From Eledone cirrhosa (Eukaryota), in NCBI GenBank assembly GCA_964016885.1, contig OZ024746.1:56296001-56360000 (forward strand): a DNA stretch of 64,000 nt. The letters are read 5' to 3'. Each line of letters starts with the position of its first letter. Position 1 is the stretch's first letter. Under the pieces are notes generated by a model. That model ran no database searches, was not told the DNA's origin, and was given only the letters and a program-made list of their open reading frames with translations. Positions 4,969 to 64,000 of the stretch are shown piece by piece. Position numbers and translations under genes: made by a program.

Positions 4969-4996
4969 CATAAATTGATGTATGACATACCTCAAC

Positions 4997-6710
4997 TGTT
5001 GCCAATCTTTTTATGGTATGGTGGGAAAGGAGACTGAAAGATCTCCTTGATGAGAGCGCCATACGCCTCATCATGTACTCTTGTTACGTAGACGACATCA
5101 ATATAGTAATAAGGACATCCCCACAAGAGAGCACTAACAAGTTTGATTTAGAACGTAGCACAATGAAAAGCATCCAGCAGATAGCTAATTCCATACACCA
5201 GAGTATGACTGTAACTATCGACTACCCTTCCAAACACCCTAACAATAGACTACCTGTATTATACACAGAACTCTGGATTAACACTATAGACGAGATAGCC
5301 CAAATTCTCCACTCAGACTATGCTAAACCTATGGCCTCCAAATACCTGATACTCAAAAGCTCAGCAATGTCTAGTAGTACTAAGTTTAATATTCTGATCG
5401 CGGACTTGGTACGAGTGATGAAGAACGTATCCCGCATGTGCGACCCAATAGAAATGGAAAGACACATCCAACACTTCATCAACCACATGCAGTTCTCTGG
5501 CTACAACCAAAGAGACAGAATCAGAGTATACGAAGGAGCCACGGAGAAGTATAAGACCTCATAGAACTGGACATTAAAGGAATTTGCCCATTATACAGGA
5601 GCAAATCATGGAATAGCTTAGATTGGACCAGACATAAGATAGGGAAAGCCACCTCATGGTACGACAACCAGAGATACCAGAGAGGGAAATTAGCTAACCA
5701 GTGTTGAAAGGCTCTGAGAAAGACCCACTTAAAGATTAAGGTGGTAGAAAAGCCAGGAACGACCATAAATTCCCTGATCAGCGAAACCTACCCTTTTAAG
5801 AAAACCAACTGTACTAATAGGAAATGTATCATATGTAAAGTAAAACCCCGGATAAACTGTAAAACTAGAAACGTAGTCTATAGCATAAGATGTACAGAGG
5901 GTACTTGCAGAAACACGACAACAACATACATAGGCGAGACAGCTCGTAGCATAGGTGAAAGGATAGACCAACACTCTGGGGTGGAACTAAAAGGACGAAA
6001 AAACGGTTCAGTACTATACGTACATGTCAGACAACAACATGACGGTAACATAGACAACATATAAATTAGAATAATATCTAAACATAGAAATGACCCAGCA
6101 GATAGGCAAATCAGAGAGGCCAGCGAAATAGAACTTAGAAGGCCAAGGCTAAGCAGAAAAAAATGAATGGAATAACAACAACACCCAAACAAACAACACT
6201 GACCTAAGAGAAGTATAAATTAATAAATAAATAGATCAATAAATAAATACATACACAAGCACAATAACAACAAACACATATAAGCACACACTAGTAAACT
6301 AAGATAGAATACAATAACAAATACACAGTCATCCAAACACGAACACATATCAAACAAAACAATATACACACACGCAAACGCATGCGCAGAGAAGACAAAA
6401 AAAAAAAAATAAATAAATAAATAAATAAAGACGGCGTAGGCATACAATGCAACGGGAGGAAACATAATAGCACCACTGACGATATTGCAGATGTGTAACG
6501 AAAGAACTTTGTTAGACTATATATATGTGTTTGTGTCTATATTGTACCTGTATTTTTGACCGTTGGTCAGTCAATGGTAACATTGAGGACCGAATAAATT
6601 AAATCAACCGATATAAAGGACACAGAAGCGAAAACCAACCAAACAGTGAGTGTGTTCTGTTATTAATTCTGGCAATATTATTACACAAATATGACTCTCC
6701 CCAAGTCTAA
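4997..6710 (+). mobile_element. Penelope-like element, 5'-truncated (RT C-terminus, GIY-YIG endonuclease, 3' UTR)
   Basis: CYVDD RT motif, Cys-rich linker CTNRKCIIC and NVVYSIRC...YIGETARSIGERIDQH GIY-YIG. Closely homologous to 61899-63610; has stops and a deletion. Confidence 0.92.
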
Positions 6711-6791
<81 letters not shown>

Positions 6792-12767: not shown

Positions 12768-12807
12768 CCGAGCTGAAGATCCGCGAAGGTGAAACAATTG
12801 TTCTCAG
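12768..12807 (+). ncRNA. Minimal type I hammerhead (family C)
   Basis: ccgag CTGAAGA t cc gcgaa gg t GAAA caattg TT ctcag; palindromic stem III ACAATTGT. Confidence 0.75.
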
Positions 12808-12838: not shown

Positions 12839-13437
<599 letters not shown>

Positions 13438-16400
13438 AAATTGAAACAAAATGAAAACGAAATTTCATTTCTCACTCTTAGTATGGCACTTACTTAAATG
13501 TAAGTATGCATGTATACGTACATACATATATGTATACAGACGTACAGTAGCATGCACATATATATACATATATACATACATATGCATACAGGTACACATA
13601 CATATATGCACGTATCAGTTTAGCGGCGCTTATTATAACGTTCCTGTGTCAGTGTTGAACAAAAAGGTGACGTGGTTGCCTTAACACCGTATGGCATAAA
13701 TTCAGGCTGTTCAGTTTGTTTACAAACGAACAAAGCGACGTTATAATAAGCGCCGCTAAACTGATACGTGCATATATGTATGTGTACCTGTATGCATATG
13801 TATGTATATATGTATATATATGTGCATGCTACTGTACGTCTGTATACATATATGTATGTACGTATACATGCATACTTACATTTAAGTAAGTGCCATACTA
13901 AGAGTGAGAAATGAAATTTCGTTTTCATTTTGTTTCAATTTATCGTTTTCGGTATGCCTGACCGATTTAACTCACTCAATATGCAAATTAGGCTGCTCAG
14001 CCTTAATTTTCATAAGGGAAGTATATACTTTCGAACGTTCAACTATCTGGCAGATGGGTAAACGGTGCTGATGATAGCTAACAAGCTTGAAACTAGTACA
14101 TCGTTCCTGTGTCAGTGTTGAACAAAAAGGTGACGTGGTTGCCTTAACACCGTATGGCATAAATTCAGGCTGTTCAGTTTGTTTACAAACGAACAAAGCG
14201 ACGTTATAATAAGCGCCGCTAAACTGATACGTGCATATATGTATGTGTACCTGTATGCATATGTATGTATATATGTATATATATGTGCATGCTACTGTAC
14301 GTCTGTATACATATATGTATGTACGTATACATGCATACTTACATTTAAGTAAGTGCCATACTAAGAGTGAGAAATGAAATTTCGTTTTCATTTTGTTTCA
14401 ATTTATCGTTTTCGGTATGCCTGACCGATTTAACTCACTCAATATGCAAATTAGGCTGCTCAGCCTTAATTTTCATAAGGGAAGTATATACTTTCGAACG
14501 TTCAACTATCTGGCAGATGGGTAAACGGTGCTGATGATAGCTAACAAGCTTGAAACTAGTACATCGTTCCTGTGTCAGTGTTGAACAAAAAGGTGACGTG
14601 GTTGCCTTAACACCGTATGGCATAAATTCAGGCTGTTCAGTTTGTTTACAAACGAACAAAGCGACGTTATAATAAGCGCCGCTAAACTGATACGTGCATA
14701 TATGTATGTGTACCTGTATGCATATGTATGTATATATGTATATATATGTGCATGCTACTGTACGTCTGTATACATATATGTATGTACGTATACATGCATA
14801 CTTACATTTAAGTAAGTGCCATACTAAGAGTGAGAAATGAAATTTCGTTTTCATTTTGTTTCAATTTATCGTTTTCGGTATGCCTGACCGATTTAACTCA
14901 CTCAATATGCAAATTAGGCTGCTCAGCCTTAATTTTCATAAGGGAAGTATATACTTTCGAACGTTCAACTATCTGGCAGATGGGTAAACGGTGCTGATGA
15001 TAGCTAACAAGCTTGAAACTAGTACATCGTTCCTGTGTCAGTGTTGAACAAAAAGGTGACGTGGTTGCCTTAACACCGTATGGCATAAATTCAGGCTGTT
15101 CAGTTTGTTTACAAACGAACAAAGCGACGTTATAATAAGCGCCGCTAAACTGATACGTGCATATATGTATGTGTACCTGTATGCATATGTATGTATATAT
15201 GTATATATATGTGCATGCTACTGTACGTCTGTATACATATATGTATGTACGTATACATGCATACTTACATTTAAGTAAGTGCCATACTAAGAGTGAGAAA
15301 TGAAATTTCGTTTTCATTTTGTTTCAATTTATCGTTTTCGGTATGCCTGACCGATTTAACTCACTCAATATGCAAATTAGGCTGCTCAGCCTTAATTTTC
15401 ATAAGGGAAGTATATACTTTCGAACGTTCAACTATCTGGCAGATGGGTAAACGGTGCTGATGATAGCTAACAAGCTTGAAACTAGTACATCGTTCCTGTG
15501 TCAGTGTTGAACAAAAAGGTGACGTGGTTGCCTTAACACCGTATGGCATAAATTCAGGCTGTTCAGTTTGTTTACAAACGAACAAAGCGACGTTATAATA
15601 AGCGCCGCTAAACTGATACGTGCATATATGTATGTGTACCTGTATGCATATGTATGTATATATGTATATATATGTGCATGCTACTGTACGTCTGTATACA
15701 TATATGTATGTACGTATACATGCATACTTACATTTAAGTAAGTGCCATACTAAGAGTGAGAAATGAAATTTCGTTTTCATTTTGTTTCAATTTATCGTTT
15801 TCGGTATGCCTGACCGATTTAACTCACTCAATATGCAAATTAGGCTGCTCAGCCTTAATTTTCATAAGGGAAGTATATACTTTCGAACGTTCAACTATCT
15901 GGCAGATGGGTAAACGGTGCTGATGATAGCTAACAAGCTTGAAACTAGTACATCGTTCCTGTGTCAGTGTTGAACAAAAAGGTGACGTGGTTGCCTTAAC
16001 ACCGTATGGCATAAATTCAGGCTGTTCAGTTTGTTTACAAACGAACAAAGCGACGTTATAATAAGCGCCGCTAAACTGATACGTGCATATATGTATGTGT
16101 ACCTGTATGCATATGTATGTATATATGTATATATATGTGCATGCTACTGTACGTCTGTATACATATATGTATGTACGTATACATGCATACTTACATTTAA
16201 GTAAGTGCCATACTAAGAGTGAGAAATGAAATTTCGTTTTCATTTTGTTTCAATTTATCGTTTTCGGTATGCCTGACCGATTTAACTCACTCAATATGCA
16301 AATTAGGCTGCTCAGCCTTAATTTTCATAAGGGAAGTATATACTTTCGAACGTTCAACTATCTGGCAGATGGGTAAACGGTGCTGATGATAGCTAACAAG

Positions 16401-16657
16401 CTTGAAACTAGTACATCGTTCCTGTGTCAGTGTTGAACAAAAAGGTGACGTGGTTGCCTTAACACCGTATGGCATAAATTCAGGCTGTTCAGTTTGTTTA
16501 CAAACGAACAAAGCGACGTTATAATAAGCGCCGCTAAACTGATACGTGCATATATGTATGTGTACCTGTATGCATATGTATGTATATATGTATATATATG
16601 TGCATGCTACTGTACGTCTGTATACATATATGTATGTACGTATACATGCATACTTAC

Positions 16658-16660
<3 letters not shown>
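13438..16660 (+). repeat. 463-bp tandem array (about 6.5 units) with a 5' inverted arm; retrozyme-like family A1
   Basis: Exact 463 spacing of repeated ORFs (13972, 14435, ... 16287). 13438-13640 is an inverted partial unit. (TA)n on both sides; one HHR per unit. Confidence 0.95.
14061..14105 (+). ncRNA. Minimal type I hammerhead (copies also start at 14524, 14987, 15450, 15913, 16376)
   Basis: aacggtg CTGATGA t agct aaca agct t GAAA cta GTA catcgtt. 7-bp stem I, 4-bp stem II, palindromic stem III ACTAGT; predicted cleavage after 14098. Confidence 0.92.
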
Positions 16661-16715
<55 letters not shown>

Positions 16716-16759
16716 GTGTATTCATATATATATATATATATATCGATAGTCGATCGACA

Positions 16760-16960
16760 AGATCCCAGGCCACATTCATTTAACGAGTTGGATGTAGCTC
16801 GTCAAATCGGACCGAGGAGATAGTGTTTCCATTAGTCTTTCTAATTGCTAGTATTAAATATCGGCCGCAACTTCAGGTCCTTGCTCAAGGCCCCAAACCA
16901 TCACCCGATCTAGGTATCGAAACCACAAACCTACGATTGCGAATCCACTTAGCCATGTAC
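16760..16960 (-). mobile_element. Second, degenerate tRNA-derived SINE
   Basis: Minus strand has an A-box-like tggctaagtgg, a B-box-like ggtttcgatacc, then ccttgagcaagg. Confidence 0.55.
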
Positions 16961-17540
16961 CGAAGAGGCCGGCGTCTGCCGGACTTATTAACCGAGCATT
17001 TGAGGGACGTACGACATGACTGGGGTAATCACGAAATACTTAACTTCCGATCCCTAGGCACTTTCTCTCTATATATATAAGTTTGCGGGATCCCATTTCA
17101 TCACGGATCACCAGAATCGCCAACAGGACGAAGTCGAATTTGATTTTCTGCCTAGGCTTTAGTTTCTCAAATAGTCTTAATTCCTCAACACATTTTCTAT
17201 AATATATATTTATCCTTGCACACATGCGCCCATTCTTACCTCGTTTGATGTAATACTTGCTCACACATTCACCCATCGAGTTATGTATGGCTTCGTTACG
17301 TAAGAAATACACACACACATAGCTTTATAAAGACCAAAAACAAACACGTACACAACTCTACGCTTACAATCACAGCTCAGAACTATATGTAGGTATATGT
17401 GTGTGTGTATGTCACACATGTAAATGTATATGCATATTTAATCTGGGTATAACAAAAATACAGTCTTTTTTTTCTATTGGGTGTGTGTTTGAATATAAGT
17501 TATATATATATATATATATATATGGATTTCGTTCAACATG

Positions 17541-17632
<92 letters not shown>

Positions 17633-18077
17633 CGTGTGTGTGTGGGCGTGTGTGCGTGTGTATGTACGTGTATCTGGTTGTACGTATTTGTGGGTCGGGG
17701 TGTGTGGGTGTGCACATGTAAGATTGATCTATGCCTACTAGATTAAATAGAATATTGAACACAGAAGACCGTTCTAGGTGAGTCACAGTGAATATAGTCA
17801 ATTAGGTAGTAAAATAGCGGATAAAAACGCCCAGGAATAAATATGTTCCATCGTCAGTAATTCTATCCAGGGGTTGATTTCTTCATCGATCTTCATAACG
17901 CAAAATTAACCACCAATCGCAGTTGCTGTTTGCCAAGATTTAATGGTATATTTGACTTCCAATATGTAAGTACGAACCAAGTGTGGTGGATTGCCAGAAT
18001 AAGTAGCGCATATTTTTTTTATATATATATACATATATGTAGCGCATATTTTTTTAATTATATATATACAAATATGT

Positions 18078-18129
<52 letters not shown>

Positions 18130-18362
18130 TGTCTTAAACGTATATACATATGTGTGCGTGTGTGTGCGTGTGTGTGTGTGAGTATGTATAGGAATGTATG
18201 TATATGTGTGTTTGTGTGTGTATATATATAGTTATGTTTATATATATTTGTATATATGCGTCTACATACAGAGACATACATATACATGAAGTAGTAACAA
18301 AGTCAAAAACATATATATTTGTATATATTTGTATATATTTGTATATATTTGTAAATATTTAA

Positions 18363-18397
<35 letters not shown>

Positions 18398-18665
18398 AAC
18401 GGAAAAAATGAAACGATATTTCATTTCCCACTCTTAGTACGGCTGTTACTTAAATATAAGTATGTACACGTACATACATATATGTATACCGACGTACAGT
18501 AGTATGTATATATATATATATACATACATGCACACATATATATATGCACGTATGGATTCACCGAACATTTATTATAATGCTCGGTGTGTTTGTAAACAAA
18601 CATCCCGTATTAAGCCGTAGTGTCTAGCAACCACCGTTGCTCGTTTGTTCAACACTGACAAAGGA

Positions 18666-18708
18666 ACGCTGTACTAGTTTCAAGCTTGTTAGCTATCGTC
18701 AGCAACGT
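18666..18708 (-). ncRNA. Minimal type I hammerhead (10 minus-strand copies, every 424 bp up to 22482-22524)
   Basis: acgttg CTGACGA t agct aaca agct t GAAA cta GTA cagcgt. Confidence 0.92.
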
Positions 18709-21700
18709 ATACCTTCCTGCCAGATTGTTGAACGTATATACTTACCTTATGCATATTAACGGCTGAGTAGCCCAATATGCATATCGAGTGGGTTAATCGG
18801 CCGGGTGCACCGAAAACGATAAACGGAAAAAATGAAACGATATTTCATTTCCCACTCTTAGTACGGCTGTTACTTAAATATAAGTATGTACACGTACATA
18901 CATATATGTATACCGACGTACAGTAGTATGTATATATATATATATACATACATGCACACATATATATATGCACGTATGGATTCACCGAACATTTATTATA
19001 ATGCTCGGTGTGTTTGTAAACAAACATCCCGTATTAAGCCGTAGTGTCTAGCAACCACCGTTGCTCGTTTGTTCAACACTGACAAAGGAACGCTGTACTA
19101 GTTTCAAGCTTGTTAGCTATCGTCAGCAACGTATACCTTCCTGCCAGATTGTTGAACGTATATACTTACCTTATGCATATTAACGGCTGAGTAGCCCAAT
19201 ATGCATATCGAGTGGGTTAATCGGCCGGGTGCACCGAAAACGATAAACGGAAAAAATGAAACGATATTTCATTTCCCACTCTTAGTACGGCTGTTACTTA
19301 AATATAAGTATGTACACGTACATACATATATGTATACCGACGTACAGTAGTATGTATATATATATATATACATACATGCACACATATATATATGCACGTA
19401 TGGATTCACCGAACATTTATTATAATGCTCGGTGTGTTTGTAAACAAACATCCCGTATTAAGCCGTAGTGTCTAGCAACCACCGTTGCTCGTTTGTTCAA
19501 CACTGACAAAGGAACGCTGTACTAGTTTCAAGCTTGTTAGCTATCGTCAGCAACGTATACCTTCCTGCCAGATTGTTGAACGTATATACTTACCTTATGC
19601 ATATTAACGGCTGAGTAGCCCAATATGCATATCGAGTGGGTTAATCGGCCGGGTGCACCGAAAACGATAAACGGAAAAAATGAAACGATATTTCATTTCC
19701 CACTCTTAGTACGGCTGTTACTTAAATATAAGTATGTACACGTACATACATATATGTATACCGACGTACAGTAGTATGTATATATATATATATACATACA
19801 TGCACACATATATATATGCACGTATGGATTCACCGAACATTTATTATAATGCTCGGTGTGTTTGTAAACAAACATCCCGTATTAAGCCGTAGTGTCTAGC
19901 AACCACCGTTGCTCGTTTGTTCAACACTGACAAAGGAACGCTGTACTAGTTTCAAGCTTGTTAGCTATCGTCAGCAACGTATACCTTCCTGCCAGATTGT
20001 TGAACGTATATACTTACCTTATGCATATTAACGGCTGAGTAGCCCAATATGCATATCGAGTGGGTTAATCGGCCGGGTGCACCGAAAACGATAAACGGAA
20101 AAAATGAAACGATATTTCATTTCCCACTCTTAGTACGGCTGTTACTTAAATATAAGTATGTACACGTACATACATATATGTATACCGACGTACAGTAGTA
20201 TGTATATATATATATATACATACATGCACACATATATATATGCACGTATGGATTCACCGAACATTTATTATAATGCTCGGTGTGTTTGTAAACAAACATC
20301 CCGTATTAAGCCGTAGTGTCTAGCAACCACCGTTGCTCGTTTGTTCAACACTGACAAAGGAACGCTGTACTAGTTTCAAGCTTGTTAGCTATCGTCAGCA
20401 ACGTATACCTTCCTGCCAGATTGTTGAACGTATATACTTACCTTATGCATATTAACGGCTGAGTAGCCCAATATGCATATCGAGTGGGTTAATCGGCCGG
20501 GTGCACCGAAAACGATAAACGGAAAAAATGAAACGATATTTCATTTCCCACTCTTAGTACGGCTGTTACTTAAATATAAGTATGTACACGTACATACATA
20601 TATGTATACCGACGTACAGTAGTATGTATATATATATATATACATACATGCACACATATATATATGCACGTATGGATTCACCGAACATTTATTATAATGC
20701 TCGGTGTGTTTGTAAACAAACATCCCGTATTAAGCCGTAGTGTCTAGCAACCACCGTTGCTCGTTTGTTCAACACTGACAAAGGAACGCTGTACTAGTTT
20801 CAAGCTTGTTAGCTATCGTCAGCAACGTATACCTTCCTGCCAGATTGTTGAACGTATATACTTACCTTATGCATATTAACGGCTGAGTAGCCCAATATGC
20901 ATATCGAGTGGGTTAATCGGCCGGGTGCACCGAAAACGATAAACGGAAAAAATGAAACGATATTTCATTTCCCACTCTTAGTACGGCTGTTACTTAAATA
21001 TAAGTATGTACACGTACATACATATATGTATACCGACGTACAGTAGTATGTATATATATATATATACATACATGCACACATATATATATGCACGTATGGA
21101 TTCACCGAACATTTATTATAATGCTCGGTGTGTTTGTAAACAAACATCCCGTATTAAGCCGTAGTGTCTAGCAACCACCGTTGCTCGTTTGTTCAACACT
21201 GACAAAGGAACGCTGTACTAGTTTCAAGCTTGTTAGCTATCGTCAGCAACGTATACCTTCCTGCCAGATTGTTGAACGTATATACTTACCTTATGCATAT
21301 TAACGGCTGAGTAGCCCAATATGCATATCGAGTGGGTTAATCGGCCGGGTGCACCGAAAACGATAAACGGAAAAAATGAAACGATATTTCATTTCCCACT
21401 CTTAGTACGGCTGTTACTTAAATATAAGTATGTACACGTACATACATATATGTATACCGACGTACAGTAGTATGTATATATATATATATACATACATGCA
21501 CACATATATATATGCACGTATGGATTCACCGAACATTTATTATAATGCTCGGTGTGTTTGTAAACAAACATCCCGTATTAAGCCGTAGTGTCTAGCAACC
21601 ACCGTTGCTCGTTTGTTCAACACTGACAAAGGAACGCTGTACTAGTTTCAAGCTTGTTAGCTATCGTCAGCAACGTATACCTTCCTGCCAGATTGTTGAA

Positions 21701-22961
21701 CGTATATACTTACCTTATGCATATTAACGGCTGAGTAGCCCAATATGCATATCGAGTGGGTTAATCGGCCGGGTGCACCGAAAACGATAAACGGAAAAAA
21801 TGAAACGATATTTCATTTCCCACTCTTAGTACGGCTGTTACTTAAATATAAGTATGTACACGTACATACATATATGTATACCGACGTACAGTAGTATGTA
21901 TATATATATATATACATACATGCACACATATATATATGCACGTATGGATTCACCGAACATTTATTATAATGCTCGGTGTGTTTGTAAACAAACATCCCGT
22001 ATTAAGCCGTAGTGTCTAGCAACCACCGTTGCTCGTTTGTTCAACACTGACAAAGGAACGCTGTACTAGTTTCAAGCTTGTTAGCTATCGTCAGCAACGT
22101 ATACCTTCCTGCCAGATTGTTGAACGTATATACTTACCTTATGCATATTAACGGCTGAGTAGCCCAATATGCATATCGAGTGGGTTAATCGGCCGGGTGC
22201 ACCGAAAACGATAAACGGAAAAAATGAAACGATATTTCATTTCCCACTCTTAGTACGGCTGTTACTTAAATATAAGTATGTACACGTACATACATATATG
22301 TATACCGACGTACAGTAGTATGTATATATATATATATACATACATGCACACATATATATATGCACGTATGGATTCACCGAACATTTATTATAATGCTCGG
22401 TGTGTTTGTAAACAAACATCCCGTATTAAGCCGTAGTGTCTAGCAACCACCGTTGCTCGTTTGTTCAACACTGACAAAGGAACGCTGTACTAGTTTCAAG
22501 CTTGTTAGCTATCGTCAGCAACGTATACCTTCCTGCCAGATTGTTGAACGTATATACTTACCTTATGCATATTAACGGCTGAGTAGCCCAATATGCATAT
22601 CGAGTGGGTTAATCGGCCGGGTGCACCGAAAACGATAAACGGAAAAAATGAAACGATATTTCATTTCCCACTCTTAGTACGGCTGTTACTTAAATATAAG
22701 TATGTACACGTACATACATATATGTATACCGACGTACAGTAGTATGTATATATATATATATACATACATGCACACATATATATATGCACGTATGGATTCA
22801 CCGAACATTTATTATAATGCTCGGTGTGTTTGTAAACAAACATCCCGTATTAAGCCGTAGTGTCTAGCAACCACCGTTGCTCGTTTGTTCAACACTGGGC
22901 TACTCAGCCGTTAATATGCATAAGGTAAGTATATACGTTCAACAATCTGGCAGGAAGGTAT

Positions 22962-23004
22962 ACGTTGCTGACGATAGCTAACAAGCTTGAAACTAGTACA
23001 GCGT
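22962..23004 (+). ncRNA. Minimal type I hammerhead (copies also start at 23386, 23810, 24234)
   Basis: Same motif as 18666-18708, on the plus strand. Confidence 0.92.
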
Positions 23005-24481
23005 TCCTTTGTCAGTGTTGAACAAACGAGCAACGGTGGTTGCTAGACACTACGGCTTAATACGGGATGTTTGTTTACAAACACACCGAGCATTATAATA
23101 AATGTTCGGTGAATCCATACGTGCATATATATATGTGTGCATGTATGTATATATATATATATACATACTACTGTACGTCGGTATACATATATGTATGTAC
23201 GTGTACATACTTATATTTAAGTAACAGCCGTACTAAGAGTGGGAAATGAAATATCGTTTCATTTTTTCCGTTTATCGTTTTCGGTGCACCCGGCCGATTA
23301 ACCCACTCGATATGCATATTGGGCTACTCAGCCGTTAATATGCATAAGGTAAGTATATACGTTCAACAATCTGGCAGGAAGGTATACGTTGCTGACGATA
23401 GCTAACAAGCTTGAAACTAGTACAGCGTTCCTTTGTCAGTGTTGAACAAACGAGCAACGGTGGTTGCTAGACACTACGGCTTAATACGGGATGTTTGTTT
23501 ACAAACACACCGAGCATTATAATAAATGTTCGGTGAATCCATACGTGCATATATATATGTGTGCATGTATGTATATATATATATATACATACTACTGTAC
23601 GTCGGTATACATATATGTATGTACGTGTACATACTTATATTTAAGTAACAGCCGTACTAAGAGTGGGAAATGAAATATCGTTTCATTTTTTCCGTTTATC
23701 GTTTTCGGTGCACCCGGCCGATTAACCCACTCGATATGCATATTGGGCTACTCAGCCGTTAATATGCATAAGGTAAGTATATACGTTCAACAATCTGGCA
23801 GGAAGGTATACGTTGCTGACGATAGCTAACAAGCTTGAAACTAGTACAGCGTTCCTTTGTCAGTGTTGAACAAACGAGCAACGGTGGTTGCTAGACACTA
23901 CGGCTTAATACGGGATGTTTGTTTACAAACACACCGAGCATTATAATAAATGTTCGGTGAATCCATACGTGCATATATATATGTGTGCATGTATGTATAT
24001 ATATATATATACATACTACTGTACGTCGGTATACATATATGTATGTACGTGTACATACTTATATTTAAGTAACAGCCGTACTAAGAGTGGGAAATGAAAT
24101 ATCGTTTCATTTTTTCCGTTTATCGTTTTCGGTGCACCCGGCCGATTAACCCACTCGATATGCATATTGGGCTACTCAGCCGTTAATATGCATAAGGTAA
24201 GTATATACGTTCAACAATCTGGCAGGAAGGTATACGTTGCTGACGATAGCTAACAAGCTTGAAACTAGTACAGCGTTCCTTTGTCAGTGTTGAACAAACG
24301 AGCAACGGTGGTTGCTAGACACTACGGCTTAATACGGGATGTTTGTTTACAAACACACCGAGCATTATAATAAATGTTCGGTGAATCCATACGTGCATAT
24401 ATATATGTGTGCATGTATGTATATATATATATATACATACTACTGTACGTCGGTATACATATATGTATGTACGTGTACATA

Positions 24482-24518
<37 letters not shown>

Positions 24519-27105: not shown

Positions 27106-27231
<126 letters not shown>

Positions 27232-27358
27232 AAAGTTCTATTTAAAATGTTGGGATACAACAAGTAAATATTTTTATAACTGATATAAAACACTCGATAA
27301 GTATTTGGAGTAGATATACGATATTAACAAATGGAAACTATATTTATAAAACCATATT

Positions 27359-27423
27359 TATTTCATTATACATATTTCAAGGATACCAAGTTAAATTATG
27401 GTATGCCTTCATCAGACAAAATA
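27359..27423 (-). ncRNA. Type I hammerhead (family B), left arm of an inverted pair
   Basis: Reverse complement of 28046-28110; arms about 27316-27452 and 28017-28152. Confidence 0.85.
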
Positions 27424-28045
27424 CAATATATACCAGTTTTATAAATAGACATCGTGTGTATTTTCTGAGTGTGTGTGTATATATATATTTATGTATCTTT
27501 GCCTATGTGTACGCGCTATACGATAGGTAATTTCTCTAGCAATATATATAGTTTGTGATGTTTAAATTCCAATTTTTAATATATTGATCTCAATTTTTAA
27601 ACTAAATATCTAATCATAATTAAACAAAGATAAATTTCTCATATTATATACGTATATTCCATTCATGAATATTAATATTTCTAATTTTATTTATTTATTT
27701 CATCTCAATTGTTAACTAAACTTAATATGACATGACTTAAGGTTTTCGTTCTCTCCCCCTCTCTCTATCTCTGTATTTTCTCTCTCTTGAGTTCTTTCTC
27801 TCTGTCTGGTGGTTTGATATATCTCTGTTGTTTTCCTCTATTTTCTTTTTTTCTTTTTTCTTTCCTTTTTTCTTTATTTATCTCTCCCTTTCTTTTCTCC
27901 ACGTTTCTCTCTCTCCGTCTTTTTACTTATCCTTAACACTACGATTTACTAAAGTAAACAAACCACTATCCTTATGTCTTCCAAAAGTAACGGTCGCATT
28001 TTGAAAGGGTAAGTCAATGTCTATTTATAAAACTGGTATATATTG

Positions 28046-28110
28046 TATTTTATCTGATGAAGGCATACCATAATTTAACTTGGTATCCTTGAAATATGTA
28101 TAATGAAATA
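28046..28110 (+). ncRNA. Type I hammerhead (family B)
   Basis: tattttat CTGATGA agg-c-atacca taatttaact tggtat-cct t GAAA tatgta TA atgaaata. Confidence 0.88.
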
Positions 28111-28149
28111 AATATGGTTTTATAAATATAGTTTCCATTTGTTAATATC

Positions 28150-28221
<72 letters not shown>

Positions 28222-28224
<3 letters not shown>

Positions 28225-28968
28225 CGTTCAACAATCTGGCAGGAAGGTATACGTTGCTGACGATAGCTAATACGCTTGAAACTAGTACAGCGTTCCTTTG
28301 TCGGTGTTGAACAAACGAGCAACGATGGTTGCTAGACACTACGGCTTAATACGGGATGTTTGTTTATAAACACACCGAGCATTATAATAACTGTTCGGTG
28401 AATCCATACGTACATATATATATGTGTGCATGTATGTATATATATATATACATACTACTGTACGTCTGTATACATATATGTATGTACGGGTACATAATTA
28501 TATTTAAGTAACAGCCGTAATAAGAGTGGGAAATGAAATTTGGTTTAATTGTTTCCGTTTATCGTTTTCGGTGCACCCGATAGGCAAATTGGGCTACTCA
28601 GCCGTTAATATGCATAAGGTAAGTATATACTGTCAACAATCTGGCAGGAATGTATACGTTGCTGACGATAGATGGCTAATAAGCTTGAAACTAGTACAGC
28701 GTTCCTTTATCAGTGTTGAACAAACGAGCAACCTTGGTTGCTAGACACTACGGCTTAATACGGGATGTTTGCTTACAGACACACCGAGCATTATAATAAA
28801 TGTTCGGTGAATCCATACGTACATATATATATATGTGTGCATGTATGTATATATACATACTACTGTACGTCTGTATACATATATGTATGTACGGGTACAT
28901 ACTTATATTTAAGTAACTGCCGTACTAAGAGTGGGAAATGAAATTTCGTTTCATTTTTTTCCGTTTAT
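28222..28968 (+). repeat. Family A2 dimer, slightly diverged, with HHRs at 28251-28293 and 28656-28702
   Basis: Homologous to the 424-bp unit; TA-flanked. Confidence 0.9.
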
Positions 28969-29177: not shown

Positions 29178-29595
29178 TTATTAAAATAACAGATTAAAGT
29201 TTAAGCAAATAATCGCTGCTTTCACCCTTAACGGGATCTTCTGAAACAAAAAAAGTCAATCTGTGAACGAAGAAGTAAATATTTCAAAAAACGTTGCAAC
29301 CGAAGAAAGATAAGAAGACGATACTTTGGCTCGTGGAAACGTTCCATGGCAAAGAACGAAAAAAAAAAAAACGAAGATAATTCGTCATTATTTGGGGCGA
29401 TGAAAAAAATTACACGCAAAGACAAAACCACGTTTATGGTATAATTGAAGTCGTAGGCTAATTTTATAGGTTTATGGACACGTTATCTGGCAATGTACGG
29501 AAATAATACGTCATTATGTGAAGCAGTGAGAACAATTACACGCAAATATAAAACCACGTAAACGATATGACTGAAGTCGAAGAGTAAAATTCTAT
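29178..29595 (-). mobile_element. Solo 3' terminal repeat of the second PLE family (family D)
   Basis: Homologous to 51070-51485 and 57436-57825; HHR-like motif at 29198-29248. Confidence 0.8.
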
Positions 29596-42299: not shown

Positions 42300-42365
<66 letters not shown>

Positions 42366-42370
<5 letters not shown>

Positions 42371-42500
42371 ATATTAACAAATGGAAACAATATTTATAAA
42401 ACCATAATTATTTTATTATATATATTTTAAGGGCAACCAAGGTAGATTATGGTGCGCTTTCATCAGATAACATACAGATTTGTTTTATAAATAAATATTG
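42366..42500 (-). repeat. Degenerate family B copy with decayed hammerhead
   Basis: Homologous to 27316-27452; CTGATGA retained, GAAA mutated to TAAA. Confidence 0.7.
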
Positions 42501-42774
42501 ACATACCCGGAAAAAAGACAACCTCAACGGTTGAAATTCGCTGGATAGTGGAGATAATTGAGGGTGATATATATGTAATATATTTTATATTTACTCCACT
42601 AACTAGTTGGGTGCTTTATATCAGTTATAACATGTTTAAGCTTGTGGAATCCCAACAAATTAAATATAACCTCTGCATATATATATATATATATACATAT
42701 ACTCACATTCTCACTCAAACAGGCGCACTGTCACACAAACACGTCTATCTATTTACCTATCTATCTATCTATCT

Positions 42775-44060
42775 CCACGGGCGGAGGTGGCGAACATTTA
42801 CATAACGTCCGTCACTTACTACTGCCTGACTGTCGTGCCTTGCCCTAAGGAAACACTCACCACCATGGAACGCATGCCCTTCCAATTTCTTTGGAAGAAG
42901 CGTCCTCCTATGGTGAGAAGATCCATCTGCTGCCAACAACCTTCGAAAGGAGGGCTGGGGATGCCGTGGTTGATGATGCGTAGGCACGCATTAAGGCTAC
43001 GGCACCTACAGGTATTCCTCACTGGTCAACCGGTGTGGGTTCCGTTCGTGAAACGAGCCTTTCCGAGACTCGTCTCACTCACCGAGCTACAATCCTGGGT
43101 CAAGCAAAGATCCGGAAAACTGGGAGACTGGCACACTGAGTGTGCTCAGGCGCTCAGGGCTCTCTGGCAAGCGGGCCAGGCCATCGGTGGAGAATCCACC
43201 TCATCATTCTATAGAGGGCTGGTGGCTAGCAGGGGCGATGACACCCTTGGAGAGTCGCTGGACATGGAAGAAGACGAACTGGCCAGCCTGTTCGGTAGGA
43301 CTTTCGGCCCAGGACCAATGGACAACTTCCAGAAGTCACTGGCCTGGCAGTGCTACCGAGGGGCTCTACCCGTTCGAGAGAGGCTCTACAGACACGGGCG
43401 CCCGGGCAGGGATCCCTAAAAAAAGATTTGCCCTAGATGCGTGCGTCACGAAGAAACCGTAGCGCACGCATTGGTGCAATGTCCGGGCGTGGCTGATCTG
43501 TGGGGCTACGCCGAACAACTGCTGTCGCGGGTGGCGCCGATTAAATTGACCGCCGAGTCCGTGATGACAATCAAACCGCCTCCCCTCTTCACAAAGGAAG
43601 CAAAGGCGGTTTTTCTGTGCGTAATAGCCATGTTGAAAGAGGTTGTTTGGTGGACACGATTGAAAGGTCTGAGGTCAGGCAACTTCCTCTCTGGCCATAG
43701 TCTGGTCTACTTCTTCCGATATCACTTCGGAAGAAGGATAAGAATGGAGAGAGAGGTGCTTGGCCACAGGCAGTTTTATGAAAGGTGGGTGATAGTGGCG
43801 AGAATGGCTCGTGTAAATGGGCCTTCTCTGTATACCATCCTGTAGGTAAAGAAGTAAAGGAGAGGGGAGCACCTTCTCCATGTGCTCCCCGGGCAAAGGA
43901 TTGCACACTTTTTCGGGGGTGTGTGCAACCCCCATCACGTCCCCTCCCTTTTGAGGTTAGTTTCGATTATTTTCATGTTACACCCTTTTTACTCGATTAT
44001 ATGTAAACTCCCCCTTTGTATTTGTCCCTTCTTTTTATGCCTTTATGGTAAATAAAGAAA
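42775..44060 (+). mobile_element. 5'-truncated L1/Tx1 LINE (ORF2 C-terminus and 3' UTR) inserted in (TCTA)n
   Basis: KGGLGMP, LAWQCYRGALPV and C..C..EETVAHALVQCP motifs; homologous to 48436-49712; ctat repeats on both sides. Confidence 0.92.
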
Positions 44061-44399
44061 TCTATCTATCTATCTCCGGATAGTATAGATGTGATTCACA
44101 TCGGCTCCTCGATTATTTGGATATATTACATGTTAACAGTAAGTGTTTGTGTGTATTCTTACGTTATTGTGTTAATTAACCCTCTTGCTTGGGTCTTCGG
44201 AGATTAGGGTTAATTTATTTCACCCCTTTTGGGGTGAACCTTTTTATCCTAAAAATCTTGTTGTTATCTCTACGCTAGTAGTAATGGAAGCCATTACCAC
44301 AGGTAACGATGACACGCCTACTAAACAAACTTAAAGTGAGCTGGTAGCGGAGGCAACAATCCTCCCTACTGAAAGAATAATGATTATTAGAAACATTGA

Positions 44400-52870
<8,471 letters not shown>

Positions 52871-53043
52871 GGTAGAATATTTGGGACGCAGCAAAGGATG
52901 TTCAGAATTAAAATATAAATATAAGATTTAGGCGTAATATTTTTGAAAATAATATAGTCAAATAATCAAATAATGAGGTATATAAACCAAATGAACGTAA
53001 ACAATTTGGTATCCATGTGTGTTGATATTGTTGCTTTCCGTTC

Positions 53044-55951: not shown

Positions 55952-57435
55952 GAATAGAATTAAACGAAATTTCATTTCTCACTCTTAGTACGGCAGTTAC
56001 TTATATGTAAGTATGTATGTATGTATACGTACATACATATATGTATACATATGTACAGTAGTATGTATATATACACATACATGCACACATATATATATAT
56101 ATATATATGCATGTATCGGTTTACCGAACATTTATTATAATGCTCAGTTTGTTTGCAAACAAACAAACAGCCCGAATTACGCCGTACAGTGTTTAGGCAA
56201 CCACGTCACCTTTTTGTTCAACACTGACACAGGAACGATGTACTAGTTTCAACCTTATTAGATAACGTCAGCATCGTACACCTTCCTGCCAGATGGTTGA
56301 ACGTCTGGAAGTATATATTTTCCTTATGCATATTAACGGCTGAGCAGCCTAATTTGCATATCAAGTGAGTTTAGTCGGCCGGGCGCACTGAAAACGAAAA
56401 ATTGAATAGAATGAAACGAAATTTCATTTCTCACTCTTAGTACGGCAGTTACTTAAATGTGAGTATGTATGTATGTATGTATACGTACATACATATATGT
56501 ATACAGATGTACAGTAGTATGTATATATACACATACATGCACATATATATACATGCACGTATCGGTTTACCGAACATTTATTATAATACTCGGTTTGTTT
56601 GTAAACAAACAAACAGACCGAATTACGCCGTACAGTGTTTAGGCAACCGCGTCACCTTTTTGTCCAACACTGACAGAGGAACGATGTACTAGTTTCCAGC
56701 TTATTAGCTATCGTCAGCATCGTACACCTTCCTGCCAGATGGTTGAACGTCTGAAAGTATATACTTTCATTATGCATATTAACGGCTGAGAAGCCTAATT
56801 TGCATATCGAGTGAGTTTAGTCGGCCGGGCGCACCGAAAACGATAAATGGAATAGAATGAAACGAAATTTCATTTCTCACTCTTAGTACGGCACTTACTT
56901 AAATGTAAGTATGTATGTATACGTACTTACATATATGTATACAAACGTACAGTAGCATGTCTATATATACATAAATGCACACATATATATATGCACGTAT
57001 CGGTTTACCGAACATTTATTATAATGCTCGGATTATTTGTAAACAAACAAACAGCCCGAATTACGGCGTACACTATTTAGGCAAACACGTCACCTTTTTG
57101 TTCAACACACCATTTTTCGTTTTCGGTACGCCTAGCCAACTAAACTCACTCGATATGCAAATTAGGCTGCCTAGACGTTAATATGCATAGGGAAAGTATA
57201 TACTTTCAGGCGTTCAAACATCTGGCAGGAAAGTATACGATGCTGAGGATAGCTAATAAGCTTGAAACTAATACATCGTTCCTGTGTCAGTGTTGAACAA
57301 AAAGGTGACGTGATTGCCTAAACACTGTACGGCTTAATTCGGGGTGTTTGTTTGTTTACAAACAAACCGAGCATTATAATAAATGTTCGGTAAACCGATA
57401 CGGGCATATATATATATATGTGTGCATGTATGTAT
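55952..57435. repeat. Older family A array: about 2.6 units on minus, then a partial unit on plus
   Basis: HHRs at 56235-56277 (-, decayed), 56681-56723 (-) and 57237-57279 (+, CTGAGGA); inversion at about 57108-57115. Confidence 0.9.
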
Positions 57436-57825
57436 TTATTAAAATAACAGATTAAAGTTTAAGCAAAGAATCGCTGCTTTCACCCTTAACGGGATCTTCT
57501 GAAACTAACAAAGTCAATCTGTAAACGCAGAACTGGATATTTCAAAAAACGTTGCAACCGGAGGAAGACAGGAAGACGATACTCTGGTTCGTGGAAACGT
57601 TCGCTGGCAAAGAACGGGAAAAAAACTAATATAATACGTCATTAATAGGAGCTGTGAAAAGCAATTACGCGCAAAGACAGAACCACGTTTATGGTATAAA
57701 AAAGGTCGTAGACTAATGTTCCTTAGGTGGTGCATAGAGACGTTCTCTGGCAATGAACGAAAAAACGAAGATAATACGTCATATGTGGAGCGTGGAGAAC
57801 AATAGCACGCAAAGACACAACCACA
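57436..57825 (-). mobile_element. Solo family D terminal repeat
   Basis: Homologous to 51070-51485; HHR-like motif at 57456-57506. Confidence 0.82.
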
Positions 57826-57852
57826 TATAAATATATATATATATATATATAT

Positions 57853-57967
57853 AAGTTGAAATAAAATGAAAACGAAATTTCATTTCTCACTCCTAGTACG
57901 GCACTTACTTAAATGTAAGTATGTGTGTATACGTACATACATATATGTATACAGACGCACAGTAGCA

Positions 57968-58017
<50 letters not shown>

Positions 58018-58556
58018 CAGGTACACATACATATATGCACGTATCAGTCTAGCGGACGCTTACTATAACGCCGCTTTGTTCGTTTGTAAACAAACTGAAC
58101 AGCCTGAATTTTTATGCCGTACGGTGTTAAGGCAACCACGTCACCCTTTTGTCCAACACTGACACAGGAACGATGTACTAGTTTCAAGCTTGTTAGCTAT
58201 CATCAGCACCGTATACCCATCTGTCAGATAGTTGAACGTTTTCGGTATGCCTGCCCGACTTAGCTCACTCGATATGCAAATTAGGCTGCTCTGCCGTTAA
58301 TTTTCATAAGGAAAGTATATACTTTCGAACGTTCAACTAACTGGCAGATGGATATACGGTGCTGATGATAGCTAACAAGCTTGAAACTAGTACATCGTTC
58401 CTGTGTCAGTGTTAAACAAAAGGGTGACGTGGTTGCCTTAACACCTTACGGCATAAAAATTCAGGCTGTTCAGTTTGTTTACAAACGAACAAAGCGGCGT
58501 TATAGTAAGCGTCCGCTAGACTGATACGTGCATATATGTATGTGTACCTGTATGTA

Positions 58557-58604
<48 letters not shown>

Positions 58605-58654
58605 TGCTACTGTGCGTCTGTATACATATATGTATGTACGTATACACACATACT

Positions 58655-58658
<4 letters not shown>
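57853..58658. repeat. Family A1 head-to-head pair
   Basis: HHRs at 58170-58212 (-) and 58356-58398 (+); inversion at about 58237; TA-flanked. Confidence 0.9.
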
Positions 58659-58737
<79 letters not shown>

Positions 58738-59971: not shown

Positions 59972-62900
59972 TGAATAAGAAAAAAACTACAAGAAAGGAA
60001 AATCGAATATTCTCAAAAATACCCAGATAACATCGACAATATCCGTATGACTGATGTAAAACTACCGGAAGAATTTACCAATGACCACACAGTAAATATC
60101 TATGGGAACACTTTAATCAGTGAACAAGAACAATAAATCCGGCGGCTACCACCAAAATTTGCCATCTACAAAAAGATTAACCCTATGGAGTGCAAAACGG
60201 AGCTGGAAAAGTGTTTCACAAAAATACGTTGGAATGCAAAGGTAAACAACAACAACAATGATAACGGTAGTAGTAATATAAACAATAATTCTGAGTATAG
60301 AAATAACAACCATAACTATAACAATAGCAGGAAAGTGATAAATAGTGATAATGGTAATAATACTAGCGATAGACAGAAGAACAACAACCACAATAATAAT
60401 AATAATAGAAACATTAACCACAGATACAGCAACAGCGACCACAGTAGTAATAACGGTAACAATACGAACAACAACAACAATAACCACAGTGGTAATAATG
60501 GAAATAGTACATGTAGCAACATCAATGATAGACACAACAAAAACAAGAAACATAATAAAAGTAACAACCACAATGGTAGAAATAACAGTAACAACAACAA
60601 CAATAACGGTGAAGTAAACAACAATACATCTAGCATTCATAACAATAATAATAATGCTAATGATAGAAACAACAACAACCACCCTGATAACAGTAATAGC
60701 AACACACACAACTATGACGATAGATATAATGACGACCCCTTAGAGAAACTATTTTTCAACCCAGCTGACAAAACATATAAGATGGTTAATATCTATCCTA
60801 CGAGGTTACCCTTTAATAAGAGTTTGCATACCACAACAAATAGATGACGAGACAGAGGCACAGTTCACCATAGCTAGAAATAAGATTAGACAAATAGTAG
60901 ACAGGTATACTAAGAGACACAGCAGACCAGAGGCCCAACAACTTGGGAGGAAACCTGTAGAAGGCTTGGTTAGACTCAAGCAGCGCACAAGGATGGTGAG
61001 GTAGTGTGTCTACCCACGGATAAGTCTGGTAGGATGTCAATAGATAGCATGCCGAACTACATCGAGGCTATGCAACCCCACATCACCAACACGAGCGAAA
61101 TTGCACAACAAACACACGATGGGAGAGAAAAAATCATCAGCGCTCACATGATGATGTGGACTGACATCCTAAAGCCAAGCAGACGCACTGCCAACAACGT
61201 CCAGGCGTCTAACAATGGCATACCACCCTTGTATGTGCTCCGCAAAGACCACAAGACAGTCGACGACCCGACAACAGGACCACCAACAAGACCCGTATGC
61301 GGAGCTAATATAGCTAGCAACTACAGGATCTCCTACTTCCTCTCAATGGTTATACGCCCCATAATCAAGATGTCCCCAGATGTATGTGACAGTACAGAGG
61401 ACCTCCTCAGCAGAATCAGTGAGTGCAACAAAATCAGGAGCCTATCCAACTGCATAATAGGCAGCATGGATGTGGTGTCACTGTACCCATCCATTAACAT
61501 TGATTTTGCTGTGAAAAGATGTGTGGAGATGATCATTGAGAGTGAGGTGGAGTTCTGCGACGTCGACACAGACGAACTGGGCCTCCTACTTAGACTTACC
61601 TACGACACTGACTACCAAGACAGCCATGACCTTAGATGTTTCTGCCCTAGTAGACCTATAAGAGGTAGACCCCCCCCCCCACCATAACCTCAATGGCAAA
61701 AAGACTCCCATGAGAAGGTGGATTGGGTGGACCAAAGCTATACGGACCCCCCAAAACAATGATCAGGTAAGAAAAATGGTCGCACATGCAATAGGGCCTA
61801 GTATCAAAACTACCCTAAAGGGCCACATATTTAAGTTCAACGAGAAAATCTACACCCAAAATGAGGGAGCAGCCATCGGCGTCAGCATAGCTGGTGATGT
61901 TGCCAACCTTTTCATGGTATGGTGGGAAAGGAGACTTAAAGATCTCCTTAATGAAAGCTCCATAGACCTCATCATGAACTCTCGTTATGTAGACGATATC
62001 AATATAGTTATAAGAACAACCCCACTAGAGAGCACTAACAAGTTTGATTTAGAGCGTAGCACGATGGAAAGCATCCAGCAGATAGCTAATTCCATACACC
62101 AGAGTATAACTGTAACTATCGACTTCCCTTCCAAACACCCTAACAATAGACTACCTGTATTAGACACATAACTCTGGATTAACACTATAGGCCAGAGAGC
62201 CCAAATTCTCCACTCACACTATGCTAAACCTATGACCTCCAAATACCTGATACTCAAAAACTCAGCAATGTCCGGTAGTGCTAAGTTTAATATTCTGATC
62301 GCAGATTTGATACGAGTGATGAAGAATGTGTCCCGCATGTGCGACCAAACAGAAATGGAAAGACACATCCAACACTTCATCAACCGCATGCAGTTCTCTG
62401 GCTACAACCAAAGAGACAGAGTCAGAATATACGAACGAGCCATGGAAAAGTATAAGACCCTCATAGAATTGGACATGAAAAAAATTTGCCCATTATAAAG
62501 GAGCAAATCATGGAATAGCTTAGATAGGGCTAGACATAAGATAGGGAAAGCCAGCTCATGGTACGACAACCAGAGATACCAGAGTGTCATGTTTGTGGAC
62601 GCCACCCCTGGAGGGAAATAAGCTAACCAGTTTAGAAAGGCCCTGTGAAAGACCCACTTAAAAATAAAGGTGGTTGAAAAGCCAGGAACAACCATAAAAT
62701 CCCTGATCAGCAAAACCTACCCTTTTAAGAAAACCCACTGTACCAATAGGAAATGTATCATATGTAAGGTGAACCCCCGGATAAACTGTAAAACTAGAAA
62801 CGTAGTCTATAGCATAAGATGTACAGAGGGTACTTGCAGAAACATGACAACAACATACATAGGTGAGACAGCTCGTAGCATAGGTGAAATGATAGACCAA

Positions 62901-63610
62901 CACTGGGGGGAACTAAAAGGACGAAAAAACGGGTCAGTACTATACGAACACGCTAGACAACAACATGACGGTAACATAGACAACATAGAAAATAGAATAA
63001 TATCTAAACATAGAAATGACCCAGCAGATAGGCAAATCAGAGAGACCGGTGAAATAGAAATTAGAAGACCGAAGCTAAACAGAAAGAATGAATGGAATAA
63101 CAACAACAACCAAACAAACAACACTAACCTCAGAGAAGTATAAATAAGTAAATAAAATAAGATAAATAAATAAATACATACACAAGCACAATAACAACAA
63201 GCACATAAACACACTCTAGTCACCCATCACACAGCAAACATAACACTATACACACACGCAAACGCATGCGCAAAGAAGACGAAATAAAACAAACAAACAA
63301 GCAAATAAATAAATAAATATATAGACATACTGAATAACAATACAACACAACAGGAGGAAAATATAACACCACTGACGATGTTGCAGATGAGCAACGAAAG
63401 ATTTATGATAAACTATATATATGTGTTTGTGTCTATATAGTATCTGTATTATTTTTCACCGGCGGTCAGTCAATGGCAACTTTGAAGACCGAGTAAGTTA
63501 GATTACCGATATAAAAGACAGCGAGAAGCGAAAACCAACCAAAACAGTGAGTGTGTTCTGCTATTAATTCTGGCAATATTACACAAATATGACCCTCCCC
63601 AAGTATAACA
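59970..63610 (+). mobile_element. Near full-length decayed Penelope-like element (RT and C-terminal GIY-YIG)
   Basis: LPTDKSG, PTRPVCG, SMDVVSLYPSI, QNEGAAIG..IAGDVANLFM, RYVDD, NVVYSIRC...YIGETARS. Several stops and frameshifts; begins at (TA)n. Confidence 0.95.
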
Positions 63611-63694
63611 ATATTTGTTTCGACACACGATTTCATATAAAAAACCTCGCAAAACTAATTCATCGCCGCTATAAATATATATATAATAAATAAA

Positions 63695-63960: not shown

Positions 63961-64000
63961 CATAAGGAAAGTATATACTTTCAGACGTTCAAACATCTGG
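63959..64000 (+). repeat. Start of another family A unit, running off the window
   Basis: gcataaggaaagtatatactttcagacgttcaaacatctgg matches the sequence just upstream of the family A HHR (compare 57185-57225). Confidence 0.8.

Follow-up and report, generated by a model that had tools for sequence, protein, structure and literature searches.

Retrozymes of Eledone cirrhosa set in TA repeats as head-to-head arms with two fixed 3' ends, a footprint resembling that of Penelope-like elements

Metazoan retrozymes without long terminal repeats (LTRs), as described by Cervera & de la Pena in 2020 (PMC7229834), have units of 220–245 nt in coral, 350–390 nt in mussel and 331/353 nt in axolotl; the axolotl retrozymes show activity as dimers, and one of them, Amex2, is active despite a U.U mismatch (PMC7229834). 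This kind of element, including its presence in a mollusc (mussel), and the proposal that Penelope-like elements (PLEs) are its partners are already known. The movement of retrozymes is still a hypothesis: rolling reverse transcription by PLEs was proposed (PMC7229834), and the mechanism is 'to be elucidated' according to the 2026 preprint by Li, Clavereau & Pollet (bioRxiv 10.64898/2026.07.22.740005). In cephalopods, 235 Rfam Hammerhead_1 matches, left unanalysed in the accessible text, were reported in the giant squid genome paper (PMC6962438), and the accessible part of a 2020 review (PMC7761336) does not mention octopus. Here, we consider a hammerhead-bearing repeat family found in a 64,000-nt stretch of the genome of Eledone cirrhosa (GenBank assembly GCA_964016885.1, contig OZ024746.1, positions 56,296,001 to 56,360,000 of the forward strand; hereinafter, the window). 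We regard it as a new and recently active representative of the known non-LTR retrozymes, whose mobilisation in trans is most likely due to a PLE that primes on both strands of a TA target.

The second group to be compared is the PLEs themselves. Their insertions include an inverted truncated copy, a tail of 30–40 bp often present at one end only, and a bias to TA (PMC8557442, PMC3846280), and the origin of the inverted arm is unsettled in these sources. Purified PLE protein of the anole nicked and extended both strands, its complementary DNA (cDNA) started at two internal sites delimiting the tail, and the protein was modelled as a dimer (PMC11167929).

Tandem Repeats Finder detected in the window a 463-bp period of 6.5 copies (13639–16662) and a 424-bp period in two adjoining arrays (18395–22897 and 22896–24488), each with 100% matches. 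The 463-bp unit is named here subfamily A and the 424-bp unit subfamily B, and positions within a unit are numbered from the predicted hammerhead cut. In both arrays, 17 of the 17 whole units compared had no mismatch to the reference unit. A scan for CUGANGA...GAAA counted 6 cores for the first array and 14 for the second, as given by the initial annotation of this DNA, and the 5' ends which it predicted, 14099 and 22999, agree with the predicted cuts at 14098/14099 and 22998/22999, the latter being the first in the forward arm of the second insertion. It overlooked the inversions: 10 of the 14 cores in the second array lie on the minus strand and 4 on the plus strand. Both arrays consist of two arms placed head-to-head in (TA)n, with a 2-nt overlap at the inversion point of the second, and each of them, at 13–17 kb and 18–24 kb, is in our reading one single, very recent insertion event. 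Seven outlying copies had also been listed at 28 and 56–58 kb; six intact cores are indeed present (28257, 28662, 56717, 57243, 58206 and 58362), and the seventh, near 56270, is degenerate. The two-armed head-to-head structure was found in 4 out of 5 copies in the window, with 3' ends directed outward, mostly into TA runs.

The units are non-coding: the longest frames starting with ATG have 45/140 residues in A and 61/53 in B, are of low complexity, and none is common to both subfamilies. An open reading frame (ORF) with reverse transcriptase (RT) and GIY-YIG, as in autonomous PLEs, was not found in the retrozyme units. A long internal TA/TG-repeat hairpin (unit A ~120–245, unit B ~108–215) differs in length between copies. 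Matches in assembled contigs from three presumed RNA runs were confined to this TA-rich hairpin, and contigs from a fourth run, of uncertain type, contained fragments; neither result bears on expression. The family is similar to the retrozymes of PMC7229834 in several respects: its tandem units are non-coding and bear a single type I hammerhead, LTR structure is absent, GC content is low, the monomer is highly paired, copies number in the tens of thousands, and PLEs co-exist with it. Helix III is short and palindromic, as in axolotl Amex1 and newt, and U.U lies under helix II, as in axolotl Amex2 (PMC7229834). In contrast to those retrozymes, units are 424–500 bp long, slightly more than the 150–450 bp quoted, and the cut site in A/B is GUA. 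Restriction to (TA)n targets, arms set head-to-head and a pair of fixed 3' ends belong to this family and were not encountered in the accessible text of PMC7229834.

The motif was surveyed in 71 loci, represented by one sequence each and chosen partly by the core pattern. Its order is the same throughout: a UAH bulge is followed by a helix I of 6 bp, CUGANGA and U.U, then by a helix II of 4 bp bearing an AAYA loop, by GAAA and, finally, by the ACUAGU palindrome with the GUA site; standard spacing was found at 246 out of 254 unit junctions. In the first hammerhead of the A array, with an AACA loop, a U.U base on helix II and the palindromic ACUAGU helix III, helix I continues for ~25 nt beyond on both sides. 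Pairing of helix I is kept across subfamilies, as was claimed earlier, with position 3 being G-U in 40 loci, U-G in 25, A-U in 3, C-G in 1 and unpaired in 2. The statement that the core varies only at position 7 is valid for these loci, except for one G8 change, and not for the outlying copies of the window, which vary in helix III (57243), at 11.1 (56717) and by a 4-nt insertion (28662). Of 419 aligned positions, 55 differ between subfamilies A and B, but among the 31 core positions only 1 does, namely the free N7.

The initial annotation named this motif a 'minimal' type I hammerhead. The 'minimal' PLE-type hammerhead has a helix II of 7–8 bp, a short helix I, an extra base after A9 and a G-C closing pair, and the canonical metazoan one has a 6-bp helix I, a 4-bp helix II and a short palindromic helix III (PMC4209133). 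With a 6-bp helix I plus bulge and a 4-bp helix II, the A/B motif is, judging by its sequence, a canonical metazoan type I hammerhead, and the PLE-type 'minimal' one is excluded. Helix II is not closed by G-C: the pair G10.1-C11.1 is replaced by U.U in all 71 A/B loci surveyed. No Rfam match was obtained at the gathering score anywhere in the window, so the proposed check with Hammerhead_1 failed for A/B; at E<=10, the B stretch 22900–23500 gave 40 matches, none to hammerhead families. Rfam matches to microRNAs fall on the TA hairpin and were rejected as chance.

Folding of the monomers was far better than that of shuffled sequences (z -7.7 and -7.35), and the circular fold is highly paired with the hammerhead exposed. 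A long interrupted stem extending helix I is paired in 97.6% of cells among 27 diverse A/B rows, with 2 of 28 pairs changed on both sides; the first row of this alignment (A1) spans an inversion point, its first ~50 columns being non-homologous, and the counted pairs are unaffected. In the predicted fold of the monomer, the core CUG pairs with the UAG of helix III, which is 1.4–2.1 kcal/mol below the open core, and RNAalifold with 27 rows also favours this alternative over helix III. Such a fold is consistent with a motif that would be silent by itself and work as a dimer, as axolotl retrozymes do (PMC7229834).

A sister family, D, was found by a pattern search for a version closed by G-C. It has 466–472-bp units, 9,434 cores genome-wide, 74–76% identity to A/B at aligned positions, and a fully canonical hammerhead with a G-C-closed 5-bp helix II and a GUC or GUU site. 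Its Rfam matches to Hammerhead_HH9 (E 2.9e-7) and Hammerhead_1 (E 4.6e-4) are both under the gathering scores. Covariation, another check proposed earlier, gave a positive result: among A, B and D, 97% of cells are paired, both sides are changed in 6 of 15 pairs, and the score is 0.444 versus <=0.114 in slid controls, for an alignment of 7 rows with few independent lineages. Loci of D (L165–L167 and L169–L171, where L-numbers denote individual sampled genomic stretches; e.g., L165:133-1829) are two-arm TA insertions like those of A/B with ends ~70 nt apart, and its arrays exceed 30 units on contig C1 of the genome. The two resolved arm pairs of D both have one end of each type, as described below for A/B.

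The structure of the insertions is the most informative feature of the family. Two positions of the 3' ends, first spotted in the window, were then checked on 55 stretches representing the first 100 matches of contig C1, with the later addition of 19 young A and 10 young B loci; about 85 retrozyme loci were examined in all. The first end, S1, lies at A unit positions 243–256 (~249) and the second, S2, at 296–312 (~308), with a spacing of 56–59 nt. Out of 111 arms, including those of the window, 39 end at S1, 44 at S2 and the other 28 at different positions, in many cases next to later insertions or deletions or where the stretch stops. TA-rich DNA follows 75 of the 83 canonical arm ends (counted by hand), and the 5' ends of arms are scattered across the unit. 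Adjacent arms form 41 pairs, of which 36 are head-to-head, 1 is tail-to-tail and 4 have the same direction. With the young A loci, the number of head-to-head pairs is 48; both ends are canonical in 35, and every one of these combines S1 with S2, the other 13 having at least one non-canonical end. Young B loci added 9 pairs, with S1+S2 in all 8 that were resolved and 1 unresolved. In total, S1+S2 was found in 43 out of 43 resolved pairs (42 without a segmental duplicate in L077), where about half would be expected under independent choice. Inversion points vary, with overlaps of 1–4 nt in 20 of 46 and palindromes at some (L042, L048 and L061), and arms reach 16–17 units. Entire insertions were seen tandemly duplicated together with their flanks in L077:1993-5767 and L101.

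Arm starts did not pile up at the predicted cut site in the 83 examined: 9 lie at +1..+20 of the cut against 5.4 expected (P=0.09), in a count biased by the choice of loci, and none at -20..-1. As for a possible collision of cDNA begun at S1 with S2 after one turn, three starts lie at 309, without a clear peak.

Similar footprints are left by the PLEs of the same genome. Pieces of two autonomous families are present in the window. PLE-1, presumably Neptune-like by its motifs, has frames of 1,055–1,304 residues that include RT, a Cys linker and GIY-YIG, and it bears a hammerhead of its own, unlike that of the retrozyme; its tail covers the first codons of the ORF, and long open frames are present elsewhere in the genome. 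PLE-2, presumably Hydra-like, also by motifs, has 713-residue frames and 72,853 first-look candidates genome-wide, relatives included, and a hammerhead core was not found in it. A third group, family C, is probably the terminal repeat of another PLE. The main ends of PLE-1 are 55–60 nt apart with a third end between them, those of PLE-2 ~95 nt and those of family C ~82 nt, all facing TA. Head-to-head pairs with mixed ends were found in 7 of 7 cases for PLE-1, 6 of 6 for PLE-2 (two resolved by eye) and 6 of 6 for family C. Since the TA target, inverted arms, two ends and one-of-each rule of the retrozyme match those of PLEs, it carries a PLE footprint. Like the endonuclease-bearing (EN+) PLEs, it shows an inverted 5'-truncated copy, a one-end tail, a bias to TA microsatellites and apparent internal RT start at two sites (PMC8557442, PMC3846280, PMC11167929); unlike them, it has no ORF, a canonical hammerhead, a tail of 56–59 nt instead of 30–40 and arms comprising as many as 17 units. 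Chlamys elements that are non-autonomous, such as MRC1, are also non-coding passengers of PLEs with multicopy head-to-tail insertions, but most of them lack canonical hammerheads, their targets are (CA)n or (C)n, and they usually have a 3' end common to the autonomous family (PMC8557442).

It is hardly credible that another mover, namely a LINE, rolling-circle DNA replication or fold-back self-priming with one arm copied from the other, was responsible. An L1/Tx1-like element does occur in the window, and palindromes at the inversion points mentioned above are of the sort cited for self-priming in PMC3846280; against these stand the absence of poly(A) and of a single fixed 3' end, and the two-end rule, which is common to PLEs only. 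Moreover, neither arm is contained in its partner in 11 of 35 pairs, and the longer arm ends at S1 in 19 and at S2 in 16. Non-containment and the fact that either arm may be the longer one indicate that both were primed on RNA, not copied one from the other.

These data lead to the following scheme. An array would be transcribed to multimeric RNA, in which adjacent hammerheads would associate by the ACUAGU palindrome and cleave after GUA, releasing monomers of 463 or 424 nt that may be circularised by a host ligase. In the monomer, the CUG of the core could then base-pair with the UAG of helix III, which would spare the circle, as the predicted structure and the axolotl and mussel data suggest. 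A PLE RT-endonuclease, probably a dimer, would nick both strands of a (TA)n tract, and S1 and S2 would each be the start of one cDNA on the RNA, in accordance with the end pattern observed, the two cDNAs possibly making several turns round the putative template. The cDNA ends would finally be connected through short microhomology or palindromes, at points that vary, to give the observed structure TA–(arm reversed)(arm)–TA. We consider it probable that this retrozyme family, non-autonomous and without LTRs, is moved in trans by PLEs according to the scheme as a whole. Tentatively, and with slightly less than an even chance in our opinion, the arrays may be a direct genomic record of the life cycle, in which a dimeric PLE enzyme primes both nicked (TA)n strands on one and the same circular ribozyme RNA, at two sites that are obligatory and not equivalent, rolling round twice; the same asymmetric double priming might explain the tail and inverted arm of PLEs generally, replacing antisense self-priming.

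The nature of the template follows from variants within the insertions. In 23 of 29 unselected pairs with sufficient overlap, the partner of an arm belongs to the 10% of all arms that are closest to it, and both arms belong to the same class in 34 of 36 pairs, the 2 exceptions being old intermediates. In L157 (6/6), L158 (17/17) and L113 (2/2), single variants are fixed in all units of the two arms; in L108, L111 and L161–L163, where one arm has whole units, they are fixed through that arm. Such fixation throughout insertions points to a bottleneck of one monomer, and the template was probably one monomer, likely circular, as far as can be judged from variants in DNA.

Several observations weigh against the scheme. 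Variants recur with periods of 2, 2, 5 and 6 units within single arms of L073, L109, L106 and L107, L104 has a mixed arm, and in L103 variants are confined to one arm; such inhomogeneous arrays are compatible with multimeric circles, linear multimers or later block duplication, and the periods were set aside as proof of multimeric circles, as block duplication fits too. Two fixed variants are each shared by two loci (398T by L157 and L163, 328T by L158 and L162), so inheritance from a uniform source array is possible. The U.U closure of helix II and a 2-bp helix III predict weak cleavage, the covariation comes from few independent lineages, and the young loci were selected by identity to the query. 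In vitro, 1 of 9 Xenopus retrozyme dimers was cleaved (bioRxiv 10.64898/2026.07.22.740005), and the hammerhead was dispensable for PLE insertion (PMC11167929). Finally, no PLE terminal repeat homologous to the retrozyme unit was found in PLE-1, PLE-2, family C or PLE fragments from ~0.9 Mb of sampled loci, in a genome with many more PLE families. A single 22-nt match to a PLE end was noted (p=0.01 among 24 tests), PLE-1-like families resemble the retrozyme in tail length only, PLE fragments in the sampled loci bear other hammerheads, and no shared extension was found in the 5' flanks of unpaired arms.

Some of these points would agree with mobilisation by PLEs from an uncut linear multimer, in which the hammerhead is slow or regulatory, uniform arrays copy uniform source arrays, and the bottleneck results from rare excised DNA circles or template jumping. 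The higher-order periods and mixed arms, the variants common to two loci, the weak base of helix II in A/B and the report that RNA in unprocessed form is the main substrate of the anole PLE (PMC11167929) fit it. We regard it as unlikely: 5'-truncated copying should shorten arrays every generation, and arms of 16–17 units exist; there are numerous one-step variants, each of them fixed throughout an insertion; the core is constant between the otherwise divergent A and B, with helices I and II rebuilt by compensation in D; and the periods are also expected from multimeric circles.

The distribution of copies is evidence of mobility. Exact matches to a 35-nt pattern number 23,052 in the 3.0-Gb genome, and the reversed control gave 0, so the motif is not due to chance; a looser pattern gave at least 27,149 A/B hammerhead cores, again with 0 in the reversed control. 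Among the matches listed, the exact 463-bp A unit occurs at no fewer than 8 loci on 6 contigs and the exact 424-bp B unit at no fewer than 14 loci. The A/B copies are dispersed and recently mobile. A satellite that arose from the terminal repeat of a PLE and grew in situ through unequal crossing-over, with the ribozyme as a relic, is a scenario raised in the preprint of Li et al. (bioRxiv 10.64898/2026.07.22.740005). Block duplication could account for the arrays with periods of 5 and 6 units, and for the variants limited to one arm in L103 and L107; nevertheless, this scenario is very improbable in view of identical multimers at many unlinked loci, fixed ends intact on both sides, locus-wide variants common to both inverted arms and the failure to find the parent terminal repeat. 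The initial view of these arrays as retrozymes rather than plain satellites is well supported by hammerhead anatomy, covariation, dispersed identical units and insertion structure; the self-cleavage, unit-length RNAs and circles which it also deduced are putative. Li et al. also proposed dependence on PLE machinery, on the basis of co-occurrence and terminal-repeat homology, mostly in vertebrates; here, the basis is the insertion footprint, and no such homology was found.

What is new here is unusually clear evidence on retrozyme movement, the family being young and abundant enough for the insertion event to be read from DNA. No description of cephalopod retrozymes, or of such a footprint on a retrozyme, was found in the openly available full-text literature, taken without Repbase and without the supplements accompanying PMC7229834 and the 2026 preprint. 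The two related families add a cephalopod lineage of more than 36,000 canonical hammerheads (27,149 + 9,434), which repeat annotation would class as satellite and Rfam misses. The scheme predicts that each target strand uses one of two start sites, that the target is TA and that the template is one, making retrozyme movement directly testable. The features of the window are collected in Table 1.

Table 1. Retrozyme insertions and Penelope-like elements in the 64-kb window
Feature	Position	Strand	Remarks
(TA)n target, left flank of insertion 1	12839..13437	.	
Insertion 1, inverted arm	13436..13641	-	Unit positions ~103-308; 3' end at S2; 3-nt overlap with main arm, 13639-13641
Insertion 1, main arm	13639..16662	+	6.5 identical A units, 6 hammerheads; start at unit position 4; 3' end S1, then (TA)n
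First hammerhead, array A	14059..14104	+	UAA bulge; helix I 14062-14067/14099-14104; core from 14068
Insertion 2, inverted arm	18395..22897	-	10.6 identical B units, 10 hammerheads; start at unit position 15; 3' end S2 facing TA run
Insertion 2, forward arm	22896..24491	+	3.8 units, same sequence as inverted arm, 4 hammerheads; 3' end S1 facing (TA)n
Older single-armed B-type copy	28219..28968	+	1.8 units, 2 hammerheads; end S2 in (TA)n
Old two-armed copy	55952..57439	.	Minus arm 55952-57108, plus arm 57112-57439; ~81-83% identity to A/B
Older two-armed A-type copy	57851..58662	.	Minus arm end S2, plus arm end S1; TA on both sides
PLE-1, degenerate copies	60137-63672 and 4986-6713	+	RT, Cys linker, GIY-YIG, Asn-rich insert; hammerhead-like motif at 63372, 6476
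PLE-2	51070-52901	-	Ends also at 29180, 57440
Family C (probable terminal repeat of another PLE)	27229-27480, 28017-28158, 42359-42676	-, +, 	Long-helix-II hammerhead, palindromic helix III, head-to-head pairs in TA

The plus arm of the old two-armed copy abuts the end of a PLE-2 copy. The nearest named relatives of a PLE protein from this genome belong to Octopus vulgaris (67–73% identity). In the window, Pfam detected only RVT_1 pieces in the retroelement frames. Hammerhead-like motifs were also seen at 12773 (+) and 4960 (-), and a relative of the former lies downstream of a PLE ORF in L032. A short retrozyme fragment, broken off within the hammerhead core, occupies positions 63961–64000 of the window and L117:1-21. 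The region 42670–49310 is a GC-rich broken L1/Tx1-like non-LTR element with endonuclease and RT pieces (RVT_1, E 5.7e-10).

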